DNA of 64,000 bases from Nannocystales bacterium. GTDB lineage: Bacteria; Myxococcota_A; Polyangia; Nannocystales; Nannocystaceae. The position numbers were made by a program, and so were the translations under genes. The stretch is from contig JBOEGF010000010.1 in assembly GCA_050633305.1 (NCBI GenBank), positions 841,915-905,914 of the forward strand, in the 5' to 3' direction. A model generated the notes under the pieces. That model worked only from the letters and a program-made list of their open reading frames with translations, was not told where the DNA came from and searched no databases. Below are positions 8,764 through 27,737 of the stretch, one piece after another; positions within the stretch are counted from its first letter, which is position 1; each line of letters starts with the position of its first letter.

Positions 8764-9300
8764 CTACTTGAAGACGTTCTCGCGATAGAACTTGAGTTCC
8801 GAGATCGACTCTCGGATATCGTCGAGGGCCCGATGGCTCTGCCCTTTGGGTGGGGCCTTCGTGTCCGGGTACCAGCGCCGCGTCAGCTCCTTGACCGTGC
8901 TGACGTCGATCATCCTGTAGTGCAGGAACGCGTCGAGCTTGGGCATGTAGCGCGAGATGAAGCGGCGGTCCTGCCAGATCGAGTTGCCACACAAGGGCGA
9001 CGCGCCGGCTTTGCACAGCGGCTCCAAGAACGCGAGGGTCTGTGCCTCGGCCTGCGCGAGTGAGGTCGTTGATGCCTTCACTCCTGCGGTGAGACCCGAC
9101 TCCCCGTGGTGGTTGGTGCACCACTCGTCCATCGCATCGAGCACCTCGTCGGGCTGGTGGACGATGATCTCGGGGCCTTCGGCGACCAGCTCAAGGTCCG
9201 CATCGGTGACCAGCGTTGCGATCTCCAAGATCCTGCAGGTCTCGGGATCCAGGCCCGACATCTCCAGATCGATCCACACGAGGGGCGCGGGCGTCGTCAC
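8764..9300 (-). CDS. orn: Oligoribonuclease
   Basis: LVWIDLEMSGLD, MDEWCTNHHGESGL, LCGNSIWQDRRF, HYRMIDVSTVKEL, HRALDDIRESI. Confidence 0.97.
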   Translation of the reverse strand: MTTPAPLVWIDLEMSGLDPETCRILEIATLVTDADLELVAEGPEIIVHQPDEVLDAMDEWCTNHHGESGLTAGVKASTTSLAQAEAQTLAFLEPLCKAGASPLCGNSIWQDRRFISRYMPKLDAFLHYRMIDVSTVKELTRRWYPDTKAPPKGQSHRALDDIRESISELKFYRENVFK

Positions 9301-9661
9301 GGCCGCAGGCTAACACGGCGTAGATCCTCCGCCGGGAGCGGAGGCCGCGGCGGCGAGCTGTGAGAACGGCGTCGAAACGGAGTCTGGACGCGCCCCATGT
9401 GCACGACCCGGAGACCCCGGAGTCGACCGGGCCACCTTCCGACTCGTCGTCCTCGCGATCGCTGAACCTTGGGTCAGCGCCATCGACGCGACCGACCGCG
9501 GAGCATCTGAGGACAGTCGTGCGTCCCAGTCCGGTACCCCGGCCGCTCGACGGACGGTAGGTGTCCATCTGGGCCCGCGAATCGGGAGTTCTCGATTTTT
9601 CTTGGCGGGTACCGACACGAACTGACGACTCCGGTGTTGTTAGGCTCGCGACTGGGTTCTT

Positions 9662-10141
9662 TTGGCCGTCGACGTCGACAACCTCTACCGCCGGTACGGA
9701 CCGTTCGTGTTGCGGCGTTGTCGAAGGATGCTGCGCGATGAGCAGCAAGCGTATGAGGCGATGCAAGACGTTTTCTTACAAGTGCTGCGGCGCCGCGAAG
9801 CCATCGAGCCTCGAGGGCTGGGTGGGCTTCTGTTTCGGATCGCAACCAACGTCTGTCTCAACCGAATCCGGTCGACCACCCGAAAACCACAGTTCTCCGC
9901 GAGTGACATGCTTCATCGAGTCCCAGCAGCCGAACGTTACAGCAGCCAAGCCGAAGCGCGTGATCTGCTTCGGAGTGCGTTCGCCGATGAACCAGAGAGC
10001 TCCGCGACCATCGTAGCCTTGCATCTGCACGACGGGCTGACGCTCGAGCAGACTGCACGCTTTGTCGGCATGTCGGTGTCTGGTGTCCGCCACCGCCTTC
10101 GGGTCCTCAAAGCCAAGCTCCAGGAGCTCCGTGATGCCTGA
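9662..10141 (+). CDS. ECF-family RNA polymerase sigma factor
   Basis: LYRRYGPFVLRRC, AYEAMQDVF, LFRIATNVCLN, DGLTLEQTA...VSGVRHRL. Confidence 0.9.
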   Translation: MAVDVDNLYRRYGPFVLRRCRRMLRDEQQAYEAMQDVFLQVLRRREAIEPRGLGGLLFRIATNVCLNRIRSTTRKPQFSASDMLHRVPAAERYSSQAEARDLLRSAFADEPESSATIVALHLHDGLTLEQTARFVGMSVSGVRHRLRVLKAKLQELRDA

Positions 10142-10979
10142 GACCGTTCCCGACATCCTCGTAGAACTTCTCGCCCTGGGCGAACTCGACGACGCGGAAG
10201 CGAGTGCCGTGCGGGCGCAGCTCGAGGCCGAGGGCGACCCCCGACTCGACGAACTCGCAACGAGCGACGTGGAGGTGTTCGCGCGGTACCCCGCGGAGCA
10301 GGTCGTCGCCGAACTACGCGAGGCTGGGTTTCCGCCGCAACCGGTTGCCGAGGAGCTGCCCTCCAACGTCACGCCCTTGACTCGGGCGCAGGCGGCACCC
10401 CGGGCCCGAGTCCGACCGTGGGTCGCCGCAGCCGTCTCCGTGGCTGCTGCCGCTGTCTTGGTGTGGGCGCTGGCCTCGGGCGACGAGCTGCCGCCCGAGG
10501 AGCCGCCGAGGGTTGCGATGGTCGACCCTCCGACGACCTCCGGCGATCCGGCGGGGATCCGTACGAAGGGGGTTCCTCGCATCCTCGTTCATCGGCAGGG
10601 CGAGTCCGATCCGCTGGAAGCGGGTGCGGCAGTCCACGCCGGCGACATGCTTCAGCTGTCGTACTCGGGGGCGGGTGGCCGACACGGTGTGATCGTGTCG
10701 CTCGATGGGGCCGGTGTTGCGTCGCTGCACTTCCCGGCTCAAGCCGACGCATCGACAGAACTCTCGCGGGGGCTCGTACGACTCGAGTACGCGTACGAAC
10801 TCGACGATGCACCCGTGTTCGAACGGTTCTTCCTGGTCACCGCTCCCACACCGCTCGACCCCGATGCAGTCCTGTCAGCCGCGCGTCGGTTGGGGCAGAG
10901 CGAGGCGCCTGGTGCTGGGGAGTTGGAGTTGGCGGAGAGTTGGTCGGCTGTTTCGCTCGCGGTCAAAAAGTCAGACTGA
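10134..10979 (+). CDS. Putative anti-sigma factor (ActD-like; TM plus periplasmic DUF4384-like domain)
   Basis: Overlaps the ECF stop. N-terminal 'LVELLALGEL', one TM, 'IRTKG', 'GDMLQLSY', 'YELDDAPVFERFFLV'. Confidence 0.7.
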   Translation: MPETVPDILVELLALGELDDAEASAVRAQLEAEGDPRLDELATSDVEVFARYPAEQVVAELREAGFPPQPVAEELPSNVTPLTRAQAAPRARVRPWVAAAVSVAAAAVLVWALASGDELPPEEPPRVAMVDPPTTSGDPAGIRTKGVPRILVHRQGESDPLEAGAAVHAGDMLQLSYSGAGGRHGVIVSLDGAGVASLHFPAQADASTELSRGLVRLEYAYELDDAPVFERFFLVTAPTPLDPDAVLSAARRLGQSEAPGAGELELAESWSAVSLAVKKSD

Positions 10980-11040
10980 TTTCCGGGGCGACGTCTTTCG
11001 TGCCCACCGAACAAGTCTCGTTTTTCTTCGTTCGATCGCC

Positions 11041-11069
11041 TTGACCCGGTGGGGTTCGTCCCCTACACC
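11041..11069 (+). promoter_or_regulatory. Sigma70-like promoter for the ncRNA/tRNA unit
   Basis: TTGACC-N17-TACACC, overlapped by the imperfect inverted repeat CGGTG...CACCG. Confidence 0.5.
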
Positions 11070-11075
11070 GATGCG

Positions 11076-11352
11076 GTCCGCCCCTGGCGACGACGCGAGA
11101 ACTCGCCATGGAACGCTTCACGACCCAAAAACGCACAGCGGCCAAACCGGCTCTTGTGCGGATGGTTGCGCCCACGAAGGGCCGCAATATGGGCGCGTGT
11201 TGAGCGTTCCCGGGCGTTGTTGCTGACGTTGCACTTCGGTGTACAGGCGGCCTGCCCGGGCGCTGGGACATGCGAACTTCAACCCGCCCTGCAGGCGGCC
11301 GACGTCGTCGTGACGTCATCGTCGTGGGGTCGATTCCCACGGCTCTTGTCTC
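11076..11352 (+). ncRNA. Candidate structured ncRNA / tRNA-operon leader ending in a T-arm-like hairpin
   Basis: At least eight helices readable by eye, including an 8-bp long-range helix, a C(UUCG)G tetraloop and GTGGG-GTCGATT-CCCAC. No credible ORF. Confidence 0.45.
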
Positions 11353-11426
11353 GGTCTGGTAGCTCAGTTGGTTAGAGCGGCGGATTCTTAACCCGCAGGT
11401 CGAGGGTTCGATTCCCTCCCGGATCA
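11353..11426 (+). tRNA. tRNA-Lys (CTT), atypical, CCA not encoded
   Basis: Acceptor GGTCTGG/CCGGATC, D-arm AGCTCAGTTGGTTAGAGC, anticodon loop TT-CTT-AA, T-arm GAGGG-TTCGATT-CCCTC. Confidence 0.88.
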
Positions 11427-11432
11427 CTGCGT

Positions 11433-11503
11433 GGGTCTGTAGCTGATTGGATAGCACTCGTCTGTTAAGCGAGCGCATGCGGGTTCGAATCCCGCCGGGC
11501 CCT
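11433..11503 (+). tRNA. tRNA-Asn (GTT), atypical, CCA not encoded
   Basis: Acceptor GGGTCTG/CGGGCCC, short D-arm, anticodon arm CTCGT-CTGTTAA-GCGAG, T-arm GCGGG-TTCGAAT-CCCGC. Confidence 0.8.
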
Positions 11504-11545
11504 TCACATCATCGCGCCTCGGGATCGCTCCGGCTCCGGCTCTGG

Positions 11546-12733
11546 CTATTTCGGGGGCCCGAACACTTCGCGAAGGACCTCTTGCACCCACGCTGCGTGC
11601 TTGTAGTCCACAGAGTCCGAACGCTCCCTCGGTGCGACCACGCGAACGACGACGTGGTCTTCGGGGTCGTGGGGCTCGGCGGGTCGCTCGACCAAATGGA
11701 CTTCGGCCTCGCCCACACAGTCCTCTCCGCACTCGGGCACGTGAGAACCATCGGCATACGCCCGGACCACGTCGTCGACACTGATCTCGACCCGCTGCCC
11801 CAGCTCGACGGCGTACCCCGTGGAATCGAACTCTCCCAGCTGAACCATCAGAGCTGCGAGCCCGTTGAGCAGGTCTGTGGCGCGCTGGAGCACCTTGGGA
11901 TCGCGAGGCAGGCCGTCGAGTTCGAGGTCAGGGCTTCCGAACCGACGCATCCCTCTGGTGCTCAGTCGCACGCCGTCGGGGTTCATCTTGTCGATGAACG
12001 GGACGACGGCGATCTGCTCGGCGATGTTGCCCAACGACGACTTGAGCCGACGCTTGGTGAAGGTGTCGGTGCCCACCGTCTCGCCGGTGTCCGGATCGTG
12101 GATGAGCGCATCGCGCTCAAGCGCGACGATGCGGGTGAGTGTTTGCAGGAGGCGGAGTCCTCGGACCGCGTACTGGTTGCGGTACTCGGCTCGCAGCAGG
12201 AGGGCTTGGGTGCGGCCCGGCAAGCTCGAACGCTGCTCGGCGGTCAACGCTCGCGTGAGGATGGGGTCCGCAAGCGACGCGGAACCGACGGCGCCCTTCG
12301 AACCACCGACCGGGAGCATGTCGATGTTGATGCCGAGCAGGTCGCGAGTCGCTCGAGGTGAGCCGTCGCCGGGGCCAGCGGCCACGGGTGCGGGCTCGGT
12401 GGCGATGAATTCCAACAGCAACGCAAGCTCGGGCTCGTCGGTGGCGGTGGCGAGCTTGGCCTTGACCAACGCCTGGAGCGCTTCGCGGGTGGGAGCCTGA
12501 TGTTTGCCCGGGGGGAGCAGCAGCAAGTATGCCTGCGACGTCCGGTCGGCAAACACGATCAAGTGCGGGTCGCCGGACTCCGGAGGCTCCGTGCTGGGGG
12601 ATTCGTCGCCCGAGGCCACAGCGGGTGCGGCGGTCTCTCCCGTTCGCTGTCCGGCGGTTTGAGTCTCGTCCTGAGCGGGCTGCTTGGCACAGGACGCGCT
12701 CAGGGCGGTGAGGAGCAGGAGCGAGCGTTTCAT
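11546..12733 (-). CDS. Hypothetical lipoprotein
   Basis: Lipobox LSASC, '[15 protein letters not shown]' motif. ATGA-coupled to the dehydratase gene. Confidence 0.75.
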
Positions 12734-13710
12734 GCTTCGGCGTGTTCGGTGAGAAGGCGGGCCACGATGGCGGGGTCGACGTTGCCGCCCGAGAGGAGTA
12801 CCCCGACGTGCGTCGGCGATCCGGGAAGGACCTCACGCATGGCAACCGCCAGCGCGGCGGCGCCCGAAGGCTCCAGCAGCATTTTGTGGCGGGTCAGTAC
12901 GTGCACAAGTCCGCGTCCCATCTCGGAATCGTTGACGAGATGACTCCCGCGGACCACGTGTTTGGCGATCTCGAAGTTGAGCGCGCCCACTTGCACCGGC
13001 TTGAGTCCATCGCCCAGCGTAGGTGCGGGTTGCACGGAGACCCGCGTGCCCTCGGCCAGACTCTGCGCCATCGCGTCGCAACCCTTCGGCTCGGCCGTGT
13101 AGACACGGACGCCGGCCGCGGCACAGACCACGCATGCCCCGGCCAACAACCCGCCGCCGCCCACCGGGACAACCAGCGCATCCAGTCCTGCCCCATCGGT
13201 ACGACTTCGAACCTCTTCGAGCAGTTCGAGGGTGGCGGTCCCTGCTCCGGCGACGATGTGCGGGTGGTCGAACGGCTCGATGATACTCGCGCCGCTGTCC
13301 TGCGCGATCGCGAGTGCTCGCTCTTTGCGCTCGCTCGACGTTGTGCCCGCGAAGACGATCGTCGCCCCCAGCGCACGGACCGAGGCGACCTTGACCTTCG
13401 GAGCGTCGGTGGGCATTGCGATGGTTGCCGGGACGCCGAACCGTTGGGCTGCGAGGGCCACGGCTTGGGCGTGGTTGCCCGAGCTGTAGGTCACCAAGCC
13501 GCGCTCGCGAACCGCGGGCGGCAGGCGCCCAACCGCGTGGAGTGCTCCGCGAGCCTTGAACGCCCCGATGTGCTGGAGGTTCTCGGCCTTGAGCCAAAGC
13601 GTCACCCCGCGCTCCGAAAGCGTGTCGTCGCGAACCACCGGGGTCCGGCGAACCTGCCCCTGCAGCCGATCTGCGGCCGCCTGTACGTCTTCGAGCTGGA
13701 CCGGGAGCAT
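12730..13710 (-). CDS. PLP-dependent threonine/serine dehydratase (serine racemase-like, no ACT domain)
   Basis: [43 protein letters not shown]. Confidence 0.9.
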
Positions 13711-13751
13711 CCGTGCAAGGCTACCCGGTTTTGCGGTAGCGTTCCCGCCGC

Positions 13752-15785
13752 TTGGCTTCGTCGCTCGATAGATGGCTGAAGACCGCCCGGGCATGGGCGC
13801 TGCTCGCAAGTCTCGTCGTGGTGGTCATCTACTGCCTCGAGATGTCCGCCTCGGGCCCGTGGGATCCGTGGGAGACGCACTACGGAGAGGTGGCTCGGAA
13901 CATCCTCGTGCGCTCCGACCCTGTCGACCTTTGGTGGCAGGGAGGCAACGGGGGTCCGCACGCCACGGCCGAGAAGAGCTTCGCGTCCAAGCCGGCCCTG
14001 CCGTTTTGGTGCATGGCGCTGTCCATGAAGCTCATGGGGGTCGGCGTGGGTCGAAACCCCGCCGAAATGGTCCAGCCGTTCTGGCCCGAGTTCGCCATCC
14101 GTCTGCCGAGCATGATGACGGGCTTGGGGGCGACGTTCTTTCTCGGCATGGTCGCTTGGCGGCTCAAGAAGCCGCGCGCCGGGATTCTCGTGGGACTCGT
14201 TCTTGCGACGATGCCGCAATGGGCGATGGCCTCTCGTCAGGCGCTCACGGACATTTACTTCGTCGGCCCGGTTGTTGTCGCCGCAGGGTGCTGGGCGATG
14301 GCTTGGTTGCAACCCGACCGCGCGCTGAAGCGTCGAGGGGCGGGCGTCAAGTCGGTCCCGTGGGATCGGGCCTACCTTGCCTTTCTGGTCGCATTCATCG
14401 TCGCCGCGGTCGTGCCGCTGGCGGTCGTGCATCAGCATGCCTTTGATCCGCTGACCTGGAAGTACTTCGGCGGCGATGCCGGGTTTGCCAAGGGTCTCAA
14501 GGACATCCAGAAGCACATGTTCGGCTACTGGGCGATTGCCGTCGTGGTGCTGCTGCGGAGCCTTCGCTGGAAGCACCGGTCGCAGGCATGGATGGGGATC
14601 CTCTACCTTGCCGCGGGCCTGTCGCTCATCGGCAAGGGGTTGATCGGCCCTGGCATCGTCGGCGCGATCGTCCTCGCCCACATCGCCGTGTCGTGGCGCT
14701 GGGGGCTGTTGCGCCGCTGCGGATTGGTCATCGGCACGATGTTGTTCGTGCTGCCGGGATTCCCCTGGCATCACGCGATGGTGCTGTATCGCGGTGACCG
14801 CTGGGTCAGCGAGCTCATCATCCAAAACAACCTGCAACGCTTCTCGACGGGTGAGCAGAAGCAAGCCGTTGGCGGGTTCGCGTTCTATGTGGAGACGCTT
14901 GGGCTTGCGGCGCTGCCTTGGTCGATGCTCGTTCCCGCTGGGGTATGGCGCGCCGTCGAGGCGTTCAAGCGTGCCCCGGAGGACACAGAGGACCACGGCG
15001 GGAAGGCGCTGCACCGCTTCGCATTCCTATGGTTTGCCGTGGCGCTGCTGACGATCAGCTACAGCACCACGAAGTACTATCACTACCTCATCCCGGTGCT
15101 TCCGCCGCTTGCGCTGATGTTGGGCCTTTGGCTCGATGACCTGCTCGACCGAACGAAGCCTTCGTACGGTGTGACGGTGTGCGCGCTCGGGGGATTGGTC
15201 ATCGGCGTCGCGGTTGTGCGGGATGCGATGCTCACACCCACCTGGCTCGCGCACCTGACCACCTACCTCTACACGGGCATGTGGACCAAGGGGGCTCCGG
15301 AGGTGGACCGCCTGGCGATCACGGTGCTTCCGTTTGCGGTCGGACTTCTCCTGTGGATGTTCGCCCGTACCCGCAGGGCCCGGCGTTTCACCGTTGGCGC
15401 CTGGTTGCTCTCGGGTTTGCTCACGACGGGGTGGTTGATCGCCGACTACATCCCGGCATCCTCCGAGAACTGGTCGCAGCGCACCGCCATGCGGATGTAC
15501 TTCGACGAGCGCGGGCCCGAGGACCGACTCGTCAGCTGGTGGTTCTACTATCGGGGCGAGACGTTCTTCACCAAGGCCGACATCTGGATGATGAAGAACC
15601 CCGACCGGAGTCGCCTTGCCGATCTTGTCGCCGAGCGAGAGGGCAAGGATGCCGCGTTGTGGTTCATCACCATCGAGCCGCACGCCAAGCGCTTGGCCCC
15701 GCAGCTCCCCACGAAGTACCGCGACGATCTCGAGGAGAAGTACCGCAGCTTTCACTACGTGATGATGCGGTTGCCGCTCGACTAG
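13752..15785 (+). CDS. ArnT/PMT-type (GT-C) membrane glycosyltransferase
   Basis: [46 protein letters not shown], many TM helices. Confidence 0.85.
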
Positions 15786-26351: not shown

Positions 26352-27737
26352 ATGAAGAGGACCCGCATCGCGCATGCGTTGAACCTGCCTGCTCCCCAGT
26401 CCGACCTGCTCCTCAAGGGGTGGGTCCGTACCGTCCGCAACGGCAAGAATGTGTCGTTCATCAATTTGAACGACGGGTCCAACATGGGTGGCATTCAGAT
26501 CGTGGTGCCCAGCGACATGGACGGCATCGAGGACGTCCGCAAGCTCACCACGGGCTCCGCAGTGGAGATTCTCGGCGAGCTCGTCGAGTCCCAGGGCAAG
26601 GGCCAATCGGTCGAGGTTCAGGCCACCAAGGTGACCACCGTGGGTCGGGCCGCCGAGGACTATCCCCTGCAGAAGAAGGGCGCGAGTTTCGAGTTCCTTC
26701 GCACCATCGCGCACCTGCGCAACCGCTCGAACACCTTTGGCGCAACCTTCCGGGTTCGCAGCACCCTGGCCCAGGCGACCCACGCGTTTTTCGCCAACCG
26801 CGGCTTCGTCTACCTGCACACGCCCATCGTCACCGCCTCCGACACCGAAGGCGCCGGCGAGATGTTCCGCGTCACGACGCTGGACATGAACAACCCCCCG
26901 CGTACCGACAAAGGGGACATCGATTGGGACAAGGACTTCTTCGGGAAGCCCGCGTACCTGACCGTCTCGGGCCAGCTCAACGCCGAGGCCTTCGCCATGG
27001 GGATGAGCGACGTCTACACGTTCGGCCCCACGTTCCGCGCCGAGAACTCCAACACCACCCGGCATGCGTCCGAGTTTTGGATGATCGAGCCGGAGGTGGC
27101 GTTCTGCGACCTTTCGGAGAACTGCGACCTGGCCGAAGACTTCGTCAAGCACCTGCTTCGCACCGTGCTCGACGAGCGGGGGACAGACCTCGAGTTCTTC
27201 AACCAGCGCATCGACAAGGGCTTGCTCGAGCGACTGCAGCACGTGGTCGACTCAGGCTTCGAGCGCATGACGTACGCCGAGGCGGTCAAGCGGTTGATCG
27301 ACTCTGGCCAGAAGTTCGAGTACCCGGTCGAGTTCGGCGTCAACCTGCAGGCCGAGCACGAGCGCTACCTGACCGAGACGCTCGTCGGCCGCCCGACGTT
27401 CGTCACCGACTATCCCAAGAGCATCAAGGCGTTCTACATGCGCCGCAACGATGACGGGCAGACCGTCGGTGCTGTCGACTTGCTGGTCCCCGGCGTGGGC
27501 GAGCTCATCGGAGGCTCGGCTCGTGAAGAGCGACTCGATGTTCTCGAGGAGGCCATCCGCGAGTTGGGCCTCGAGCCCGAGGACTACGGCTGGTATCTCG
27601 ACACGCGTCGTTATGGCACCGCACCGCACGCTGGGTTCGGGCTCGGCTTCGAGCGCATGGTCATGTACGCGACCGGGATGCAGAACATCCGCGACGTGAT
27701 CCCGTTCCCGCGCACGCCGCGGAACTGCGAGTTCTAG
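26352..27737 (+). CDS. asnS: Asparagine--tRNA ligase
   Basis: GWVRT, YPLQKK, HLRNRSN, SDTEGAGEMF, LTVSGQL, FGPTFRAENSNT, EHERYL, GFGLGFER, DVIPFPR. Confidence 0.96.
   Translation: MKRTRIAHALNLPAPQSDLLLKGWVRTVRNGKNVSFINLNDGSNMGGIQIVVPSDMDGIEDVRKLTTGSAVEILGELVESQGKGQSVEVQATKVTTVGRAAEDYPLQKKGASFEFLRTIAHLRNRSNTFGATFRVRSTLAQATHAFFANRGFVYLHTPIVTASDTEGAGEMFRVTTLDMNNPPRTDKGDIDWDKDFFGKPAYLTVSGQLNAEAFAMGMSDVYTFGPTFRAENSNTTRHASEFWMIEPEVAFCDLSENCDLAEDFVKHLLRTVLDERGTDLEFFNQRIDKGLLERLQHVVDSGFERMTYAEAVKRLIDSGQKFEYPVEFGVNLQAEHERYLTETLVGRPTFVTDYPKSIKAFYMRRNDDGQTVGAVDLLVPGVGELIGGSAREERLDVLEEAIRELGLEPEDYGWYLDTRRYGTAPHAGFGLGFERMVMYATGMQNIRDVIPFPRTPRNCEF

Follow-up and report, generated by a model that had tools for sequence, protein, structure and literature searches.

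A small accessory operon of two tRNA genes, tRNA-Lys followed by tRNA-Asn, lies near the start of the window, by which we mean the whole 64,000-nt stretch of Nannocystales DNA analysed here (GenBank assembly GCA_050633305.1, contig JBOEGF010000010.1). The DNA upstream of position 11353 is the 5′ front of this operon and not a free-standing non-coding RNA (ncRNA). The locus comprises the following features.

11041..11069, + strand: sigma-70-like promoter (-35 TTGACC at 11041, -10 TACACC at 11064), seen in the sequence and with the same layout in relatives
~11076, + strand: predicted transcription start of the accessory tRNA operon, as expected from the promoter position
11085..11108, + strand: 5′ hairpin TGGCGA/TCGCCA (11085/11103), overlapping a weak Shine-Dalgarno-like GAGAAC at 11097-11102
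11108..11203, + strand: leader uORF of 31 codons, MERFTTQKRTAAKPALVRMVAPTKGRNMGAC, with stop UGA and ending in Cys-UGA; conserved in a 35-member family
11265..11352 (11255..11352 for the tRNA resemblance), + strand: non-conserved spacer resembling a decayed tRNA with a long variable arm
11353..11427, + strand: accessory tRNA-Lys(CUU) with a variant anticodon arm (ARAGORN, Rfam)
11433..11503, + strand: accessory tRNA-Asn(GUU) with G1-C72 and U73 (ARAGORN, Rfam)

Every motif that an earlier, sequence-only reading of this DNA had listed, including the promoter TTGACC/TACACC, stands where that reading placed it. The promoter itself holds up through its layout, TTGAC-N17-19-TA at most 120 nt from the start codon, which is kept in 35 of 35 homologous leaders, though a strict sigma-70 scan misses it (0 found in the window leader). 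No second promoter of this form lies nearer tRNA-Lys in the window leader. The stretch at 11085..11108 has a putative function as a Shine-Dalgarno-like site and 5′ hairpin; homologues mostly carry GGAA- or GAGG-type purine runs at an equal distance from the start.

Both tRNAs are indeed atypical, the first in its anticodon arm and the second in G1-C72 and U73. The latter pair of features differs from the housekeeping tRNA-Asn on contig C7, which also carries the genome's tmRNA, and recurs in all homologous accessory tRNA-Asn genes. Mischarging of a G1-C72 tRNA-Asn for want of AsnRS was considered and rejected, since asnS is present in five of five genomes (in the window at ~26397-27734); gatB was not found in the window's assembly and was found in four relatives. 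Apart from the window's tRNA-Lys(CUU), no Lys(CUU) gene turned up in the assembly, which is 92% complete, and AAG makes up 82% of the genome's Lys codons; a housekeeping copy may lie in the unassembled part. Upstream of the operon lie a gene for an ECF sigma factor and one whose protein has no Pfam family, downstream of it lie convergent genes, and a PALP enzyme is among the flanking genes.

A leader family in Nannocystaceae

To define the family, a covariance model was built from 11 leaders, the window among them, with tRNA sequence excluded. At E<=0.01 it gave 39 matches, spread over 23 of the 72 family genomes and 9 of 17 genera. Together with a metagenome locus (L064), 35 of these 40 places combine promoter, uORF and tRNA within 450 nt; 11 of the 35 are training sequences and 24 are independent of model building. 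Left out were L165, whose contig ends 138 nt past the match, L166, L181 and L182, which have no short ORF and no tRNA, and L180, whose 61-codon uORF exceeds the length limit though tRNA-Asp follows. Conservation is confined to the first ~200 nt, that is, the promoter, the uORF and the stop-codon hairpin.

Other searches approached the same loci by different routes. A DNA search of 60 relatives gave matches in 16 genomes at E<=0.01, the window's own included, with L002 and L004 as the only true homologues, both of which precede tRNA clusters. The accessory Lys-tRNA pattern occurs in 6 of 400 genomes of the class (own genome included), and the accessory Asn-tRNA pattern in seven GTDB records (Nannocystaceae, Myxococcota) and three metagenome contigs, with 0 matches in viral contigs. 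All tRNA-pattern loci with enough upstream DNA have a TTGAC-N17-TA promoter and a 31-32-codon uORF ending in Cys-UGA. The cultured species Paraliomyxa miuraensis has a homologous leader (L061). A search of the 72 family genomes with a single peptide was discarded: apart from L026 and L033 its output was mostly noise, and known members escaped it. At 12 homologous loci, Rfam returned only tRNA matches at gathering score.

No convincing family member was found outside Nannocystaceae among 401 phylum genomes, in which a peptide profile gave 15 weak foreign matches, 14 of them without a tRNA in the locus. One candidate, L132, was rejected because its Tyr/Thr pair lies ~500 nt off and its frame is 233 aa long. 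In other families of the class, inspection of three genomes covered six tRNA clusters, three long arrays and three small ones, and none of them showed a promoter with a matched uORF. Long mixed arrays of 22-26 tRNA genes occur in such families at L183 (G301:C66), L184 (G354:C15) and L185 (G247:C10), and one of the genes at L183 has a CUA anticodon.

Several traits of individual loci were recorded alongside. At L179 (G032:C45), about ten tRNA(CAU) genes and one Ile gene lie behind a Met-rich leader. Some accessory operons encode A34 anticodons, which are rare among bacterial tRNAs, namely tRNA-Thr AGU (L160, L164, L169) and tRNA-Leu AAG (L106, G000:C76). Seen by eye, L026, L033, L050, L051 and L053 have a second short conserved frame, with its end near a (Y/H)DExM motif, that reaches or overlaps the accessory tRNA-Met gene, and at L091, L092, L095, L097, L099 and L105 TGACAG, sometimes palindromic with CTGTCA, stands shortly 5′ of the first tRNA.

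A leader reading frame whose composition follows the tRNA cargo

The sequence-only reading took the leader for non-coding sequence. This part of it failed, because a conserved uORF spans 11108-11203. Within the family, the stop is UGA in 35 of 35 members and the C-terminal residue Cys in 33; lengths range from 24 to 48 codons, with 31 codons in 12 members. In 28 of 30 loci a start and a UGA stand in frame at the modelled positions, at lengths of 25-48 codons. The window peptide has no NCBIfam match; its Lys codons are AAA, AAA and AAG, and its Asn codon is AAT. From these sequences, we infer that ribosomes translate the uORF.

Leader composition is matched to the tRNAs downstream. The excess of cognate residues is 0.157 across the 35 leaders, against 0.004 ± 0.016 (0 of 20,000 permutations, a significance overstated since the loci are related), and 0.155 against 0.018 in the 24 non-model loci (0 of 20,000). 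Each of nine amino acids, Thr, Val, Ile, Asp, His, Lys, Asn, Met and Phe, is ~2-7 times commoner when its own tRNA follows (p 0.0013 to 1e-5). The leaders also prefer A/U-ending codons that are rare in the window's genome: AAA accounts for 26 of 43 Lys codons (genome 0.18), AAT for 25 of 42 (0.10) and GAT for 25 of 33 (0.23).

For the window alone, Lys and Asn amount to 4 of 30 residues (binomial p 0.027), and counting in the Thr, Met and Phe cargo of its closest homologues brings the match to 11 of 30 (p 0.0009). Because the leader fits the cargo of these homologues better, it suggests that tRNA genes were lost from the window operon and that this operon is a reduced member of the family. The window's tRNA(CUU) is unable to decode AAA, the codon used for two of the leader's three Lys residues.

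The match does not depend on the model. A composition-blind rule, taking the nearest promoter and the first ORF of 15-70 codons over tRNA clusters, yielded 41 leaders, 37 of them with binomial p<0.05 and together with an excess of 0.247 against 0.046 (0 of 20,000 permutations), values likewise overstated by the relatedness of the loci. With one leader per cargo type (seven types) the median p is 0.0005 and the worst 0.004. Clusters for Ser/Tyr, Ser/Trp, Pro/Leu/Tyr, Arg/Leu, Glu/Asn and Ser/Gly/Ala/Trp/Cys are included, and five chosen from tRNA coordinates alone (L103, L105, L106, L111, L113) all matched. The rule failed at four of the 41, L060, L061 (wrong start), L068 and L124, and it missed the His/Gln/Pro leader of the window's genome, which is visible by eye. 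At the other tRNA loci of that genome it found a leader in 0 of 44, of which 16 have a promoter 39-123 nt upstream and 28 have no promoter match and hence could not score.

Closely related leaders change with their cargo. Among orthologous Ser leaders of one genus (L078 and L080 versus L067), SPSYS stands before tRNA-Tyr, and SPSWS or SLSWS before tRNA-Trp. The window's genome has three further accessory clusters, G000:C13:26362-26583 (L066), G000:C27:100925-101282 (L067) and G000:C47:18510-19107 (L068). Its His/Gln/Pro and Ser/Tyr clusters have matching uORFs, its Leu pair has an internal promoter of its own with a Leu-rich uORF, and the blind rule failed on its Arg pair. Comparing the leader types brought out no 7-mer common to them.

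Two mutually exclusive folds

The leader and spacer contain the following structural elements.

11110..11117, + strand: 5′ strand of helix A, GGAACGCT, coinciding with uORF codons 1-4 and pairing with 11203-11210
11132..11160 and 11166..11187, + strand: two uORF-internal hairpins found by folding, with strands CGCACA/TGTGCG (11132/11155) and TTGCG/CGCAA (11166/11183); the second covaries in the 11-sequence alignment
11194..11274, + strand: hairpin B, long and imperfect; its 5′ arm contains the UGA, and it cannot coexist with helix A
11203..11210, + strand: post-stop switch segment, AGCGTTCC, partner of either helix A (upstream) or hairpin B (downstream)
11211/11254, + strand: CGGGC/GCCCG, confirmed in place
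11230..11243, + strand: UUCG hairpin, part of hairpin B
11284/11294 and 11301/11312, + strand: CCGCC/GGCGG and GACGTC twice, confirmed in place
11321..11343, + strand: T-arm-like hairpin with a pyrimidine tail, scoring terminator-like; in 1 of 35 leaders

As the earlier reading had anticipated, the region is more structured than its composition predicts: 11070-11352 folds at -136.8 kcal/mol (z -3.29), and 1 of 200 dinucleotide shuffles folded equally well. Relatives have conserved leaders in which helices A and B both covary. The long-range helix 11110-17/11203-10 of the sequence-only reading is helix A; in 11 aligned leaders 98.7% of its cells are paired, its covariation of 0.268 was reached by 0 of 500 shuffles, and two of its seven pairs show two-sided changes. 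An alignment-free count gives 219 of 245 cells paired over the 35 leaders and 143 of 168 over the 24 new ones, in which pairing was partly selected for since the covariance-model search favours helix A. For hairpin B, 91.3% of cells are paired, with six two-sided pairs and 0 of 500 shuffles as good, the structure having been derived from the same alignment. Pairing of the start region with the post-stop segment was rejected as a general trait of all leader types (13 of 41).

Folding of the nascent transcript gave helix A in 33 of 35 leaders, and blocking the start region gave hairpin B in 29 of 35. Among the six without hairpin B are L152, at the same locus as L103, and L158; here a terminator hairpin out-competes it. 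In equilibrium folding of the window leader, helix A dominates without a ribosome and hairpin B wins with a ribosome at codon 2, 8 or 24. With only one ribosome, placed at codon 13 or 27, helix A persists, and with one at the stop neither fold remains. Because a ribosome at codon 13 or 27 spares helix A, a switch of the kind proposed below needs queued ribosomes or co-transcriptional kinetics.

Further downstream, the spacer gives a best local match of 56.5 to an accessory tRNA-Ser, against shuffled maxima of 42.1 ± 3.7 (0 of 200). The window's terminator-like hairpin stays formed while a ribosome is at codons 2-13 and disappears when one is at codon 24 or the stop, a pattern at odds with attenuator logic. 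Pairing of the spacers with the next anticodon arm was also tried and rejected, with a mean z of 0.09 and z<-2 in 7 of 147 cases versus 3 of 111 controls.

A probable ribosome-sensing switch in front of spare tRNA genes

The promoter, the short uORF, two exclusive covarying folds and the tRNA cluster occur together in this family. Judging from sequence comparison, we consider it probable that the leader is a ribosome-sensing, attenuator-like switch that regulates the spare-tRNA operon and raises its tRNAs when their codons are read slowly. When charged matching tRNAs are plentiful, ribosomes would clear the uORF, after which the post-stop segment would stay under a ribosome or pair back to the start region as helix A. 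Under a shortage of matching tRNAs, a ribosome that has stalled or joined a queue would cover the start region and allow hairpin B to form. Hairpin B would then permit transcription into the downstream tRNAs, or their maturation, and so yield more tRNA.

How hairpin B would act is a separate matter. We see an even chance that the output is premature transcription termination or pausing that hairpin B relieves; ribonuclease-controlled processing or decay is the lesser possibility of the two. A hairpin with a U-tract lies between the stop and the first tRNA in 3 of 41 leaders. Such elements stand 3′ of the stop in L103 and L128, and in L103 the 3′ arm of hairpin B overlaps a canonical hairpin and U-tract in the layout of a classical antiterminator; in equilibrium folding of L103, B did not win. 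A Rho-dependent output was rejected, since none of the nine genomes searched (G000, G020, G075, G068, G032, G085, G067, G072 and G301) yielded Rho. Eight of them belong to the family, one being a single contig, and the ninth comes from a different family. TIGR00767 passed its cut-off in 0 of 6 genomes and PF07497 in 0 of 5, with controls positive in 8-9 of 14 reference genomes.

The same sensor could also work purely post-transcriptionally, the operon being always transcribed and the ribosome-set hairpin B serving as a site for RNase III, or for access of RNase J/E, that decides between maturation and decay. The form of hairpin B, a long imperfect duplex, would suit this, as would the RNase III gene, which lies above its cut-off (an RNase J-like gene is below its own, at 319.8 vs 400 bits), and so would the missing Rho and the scarcity of U-tracts. 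It sits poorly with the hairpin and U-tract elements after the stop in L103 and L128 and with spacers that are not complementary to the anticodon arms that follow, and we judge it unlikely. In one version of it a stall would turn the operon down rather than up; this would mean positive feedback, which also speaks against it.

The sequence-only reading had instead proposed a novel, discrete structured RNA of ~275 nt associated with the tRNAs, possibly a tRNA mimic, which would make the uORF incidental. What remains of it is a conserved, structured and undescribed element tied to atypical tRNAs, and its alternative of a processing element may hold. The discrete ~275-nt species is not supported, as only the first ~200 nt are conserved. 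In its favour are the fold energy, the covarying helices, a terminator-like hairpin at 11321-11352 that could end such a transcript, and a weak score to the bacterial Y RNA YrlA (RF02553), which resembles the window in having a T-arm-like hairpin followed by a D arm. That identity was rejected: the score is 26.4 bits against a gathering score of 69, and draws on both the T-arm-like hairpin and the D arm of the real tRNA-Lys. In keeping with the earlier note, no RNase P, SRP, 6S, tmRNA or T-box was found, nor was GOLLD or ROOL, Rfam giving nothing at E<=10 over 9000-14000 save the tRNAs and the sub-threshold YrlA. The proposed tRNA-mimic or Y-RNA domain is not supported, since the cloverleaf-like 3′ part and the T-arm mimic at 11321-11343, though present as described, occur only in the window leader (1 of 35), and GGGACA/TGTCTC (11265/11347), also present, fails to form the closing helix in minimum-energy folds. 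Against a free-standing ncRNA stand the in-frame start and UGA, a composition that follows the tRNA cargo, a 3′ third that is not conserved, the ECF sigma factor and PALP enzyme as neighbours, and the lack of Ro60/Rsr (TROVE) in a Pfam scan of five flanking proteins, two of which have no family. Such an RNA is thus highly improbable.

Equally improbable is a translated uORF that only marks or insulates the transcript, or whose peptide or released leader RNA acts in trans with the codon match as a by-product: the N-terminal M-x-R-x-T and the C-terminal Cys are conserved among leader peptides and could reflect a peptide function, but these ends coincide with strands of helices A and B, for which reason their conservation is explained at the RNA level, and the middle of the peptide varies freely with the cargo.

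The spare tRNAs probably stand in for tRNA molecules that have become limiting or that anticodon nucleases have cleaved. Recovery from such nucleases is a plausible purpose because extra tRNA helps mainly when tRNA molecules and not amino acids limit, and because the accessory tRNAs have variant anticodon arms. For Nannocystaceae as a whole, we give even weight to a wider proposal, namely that the family holds a backup tRNA set in amino-acid-themed operons, each gated by its own codon-matched leader peptide and by an RNA switch that needs no Rho and, in most cases, no U-tract terminator. The speed of ribosomes would then govern how much the tRNA genes yield, by way of a termination or processing step not yet described, possibly so that translation recovers once anticodon nucleases have cut housekeeping tRNAs.

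The window leader is real and conserved and, as a regulatory leader, apparently undescribed; it is a probable case of leader-peptide attenuation aimed at tRNA genes. The mechanisms of differential tRNA gene regulation are described as largely unknown in the available part of PMC8421152. If the proposed switch is true, a tRNA's own codons, placed in a mini-gene, gate the gene of that tRNA in a codon-by-codon feedback loop from ribosome speed to tRNA gene output. The match of cargo to codons can be read from sequence, so that the signal is predicted for each operon, and such leaders could find use in sensing tRNA shortage codon by codon. Since neither Rho nor, in most leaders, a U-tract was found, the way in which the signal is turned into output may represent a new mode of attenuation.

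Comparison with known systems

Classical leader-peptide transcription attenuators include trpL, hisL, pheL, thrL, the multivalent ilvGMEDA leader and, for a synthetase, pheM-pheST. They share with the window family a short uORF rich in cognate codons, mutually exclusive hairpins around the stop codon and, as proposed here, multivalent amino-acid sensing. Cognate-codon enrichment is clear for the family (0 of 20,000 permutations) and weak for the window alone (p 0.027). The exclusive helices are conserved and, in folding, depend on ribosome position in a way that is not monotonic. Unlike the classical attenuators, the window family would regulate tRNAs and not enzymes, has a longer uORF (24-48 codons) with an invariant UGA, and pairs the start region with a post-stop segment in its competing helix; its U-tract terminator is mostly absent (3 of 41), and only L103 has the terminator of a classical attenuator. 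No leader-peptide or uORF control of tRNA genes was found in the titles and abstract openings searched, a body of literature that covers few subscription journals.

The available part of PMC12360218 describes hisL as a leader-peptide attenuator and mgtL and tnaC as uORF attenuators. In the Rho-dependent attenuators mgtL-mgtA, tnaC and speFL, as proposed for the window family, translation of a uORF remodels the leader without an intrinsic terminator (PMC12360218, in the part available), whereas Rho was not found in the window-family genomes searched.

Phage tRNAs resemble those of the window in that positions of the anticodon loop and stem vary relative to host tRNAs, and are proposed to aid recovery from anticodon nucleases (PMC10264068, available sections). 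The tRNAs of the window family differ in being chromosomal, the Asn pattern having 0 matches in viral contigs.

A parallel in gene content is the Anabaena trn array, of which TrcR is reportedly the repressor. This operon is one long tRNA array controlled at the promoter by a repressor, and 'leader' and 'attenuat' are absent from the available part of its description (PMC8421152). Like the window family, the Anabaena L-array holds supernumerary, divergent tRNAs apart from the housekeeping set and is proposed to serve under translational stress (PMC8421152, same part). In contrast to that array, which covers most amino acids, the window operon has two tRNAs and its relatives have themed clusters of 1-16, and the family as a whole is arranged as themed split operons, each with its own codon-matched leader.
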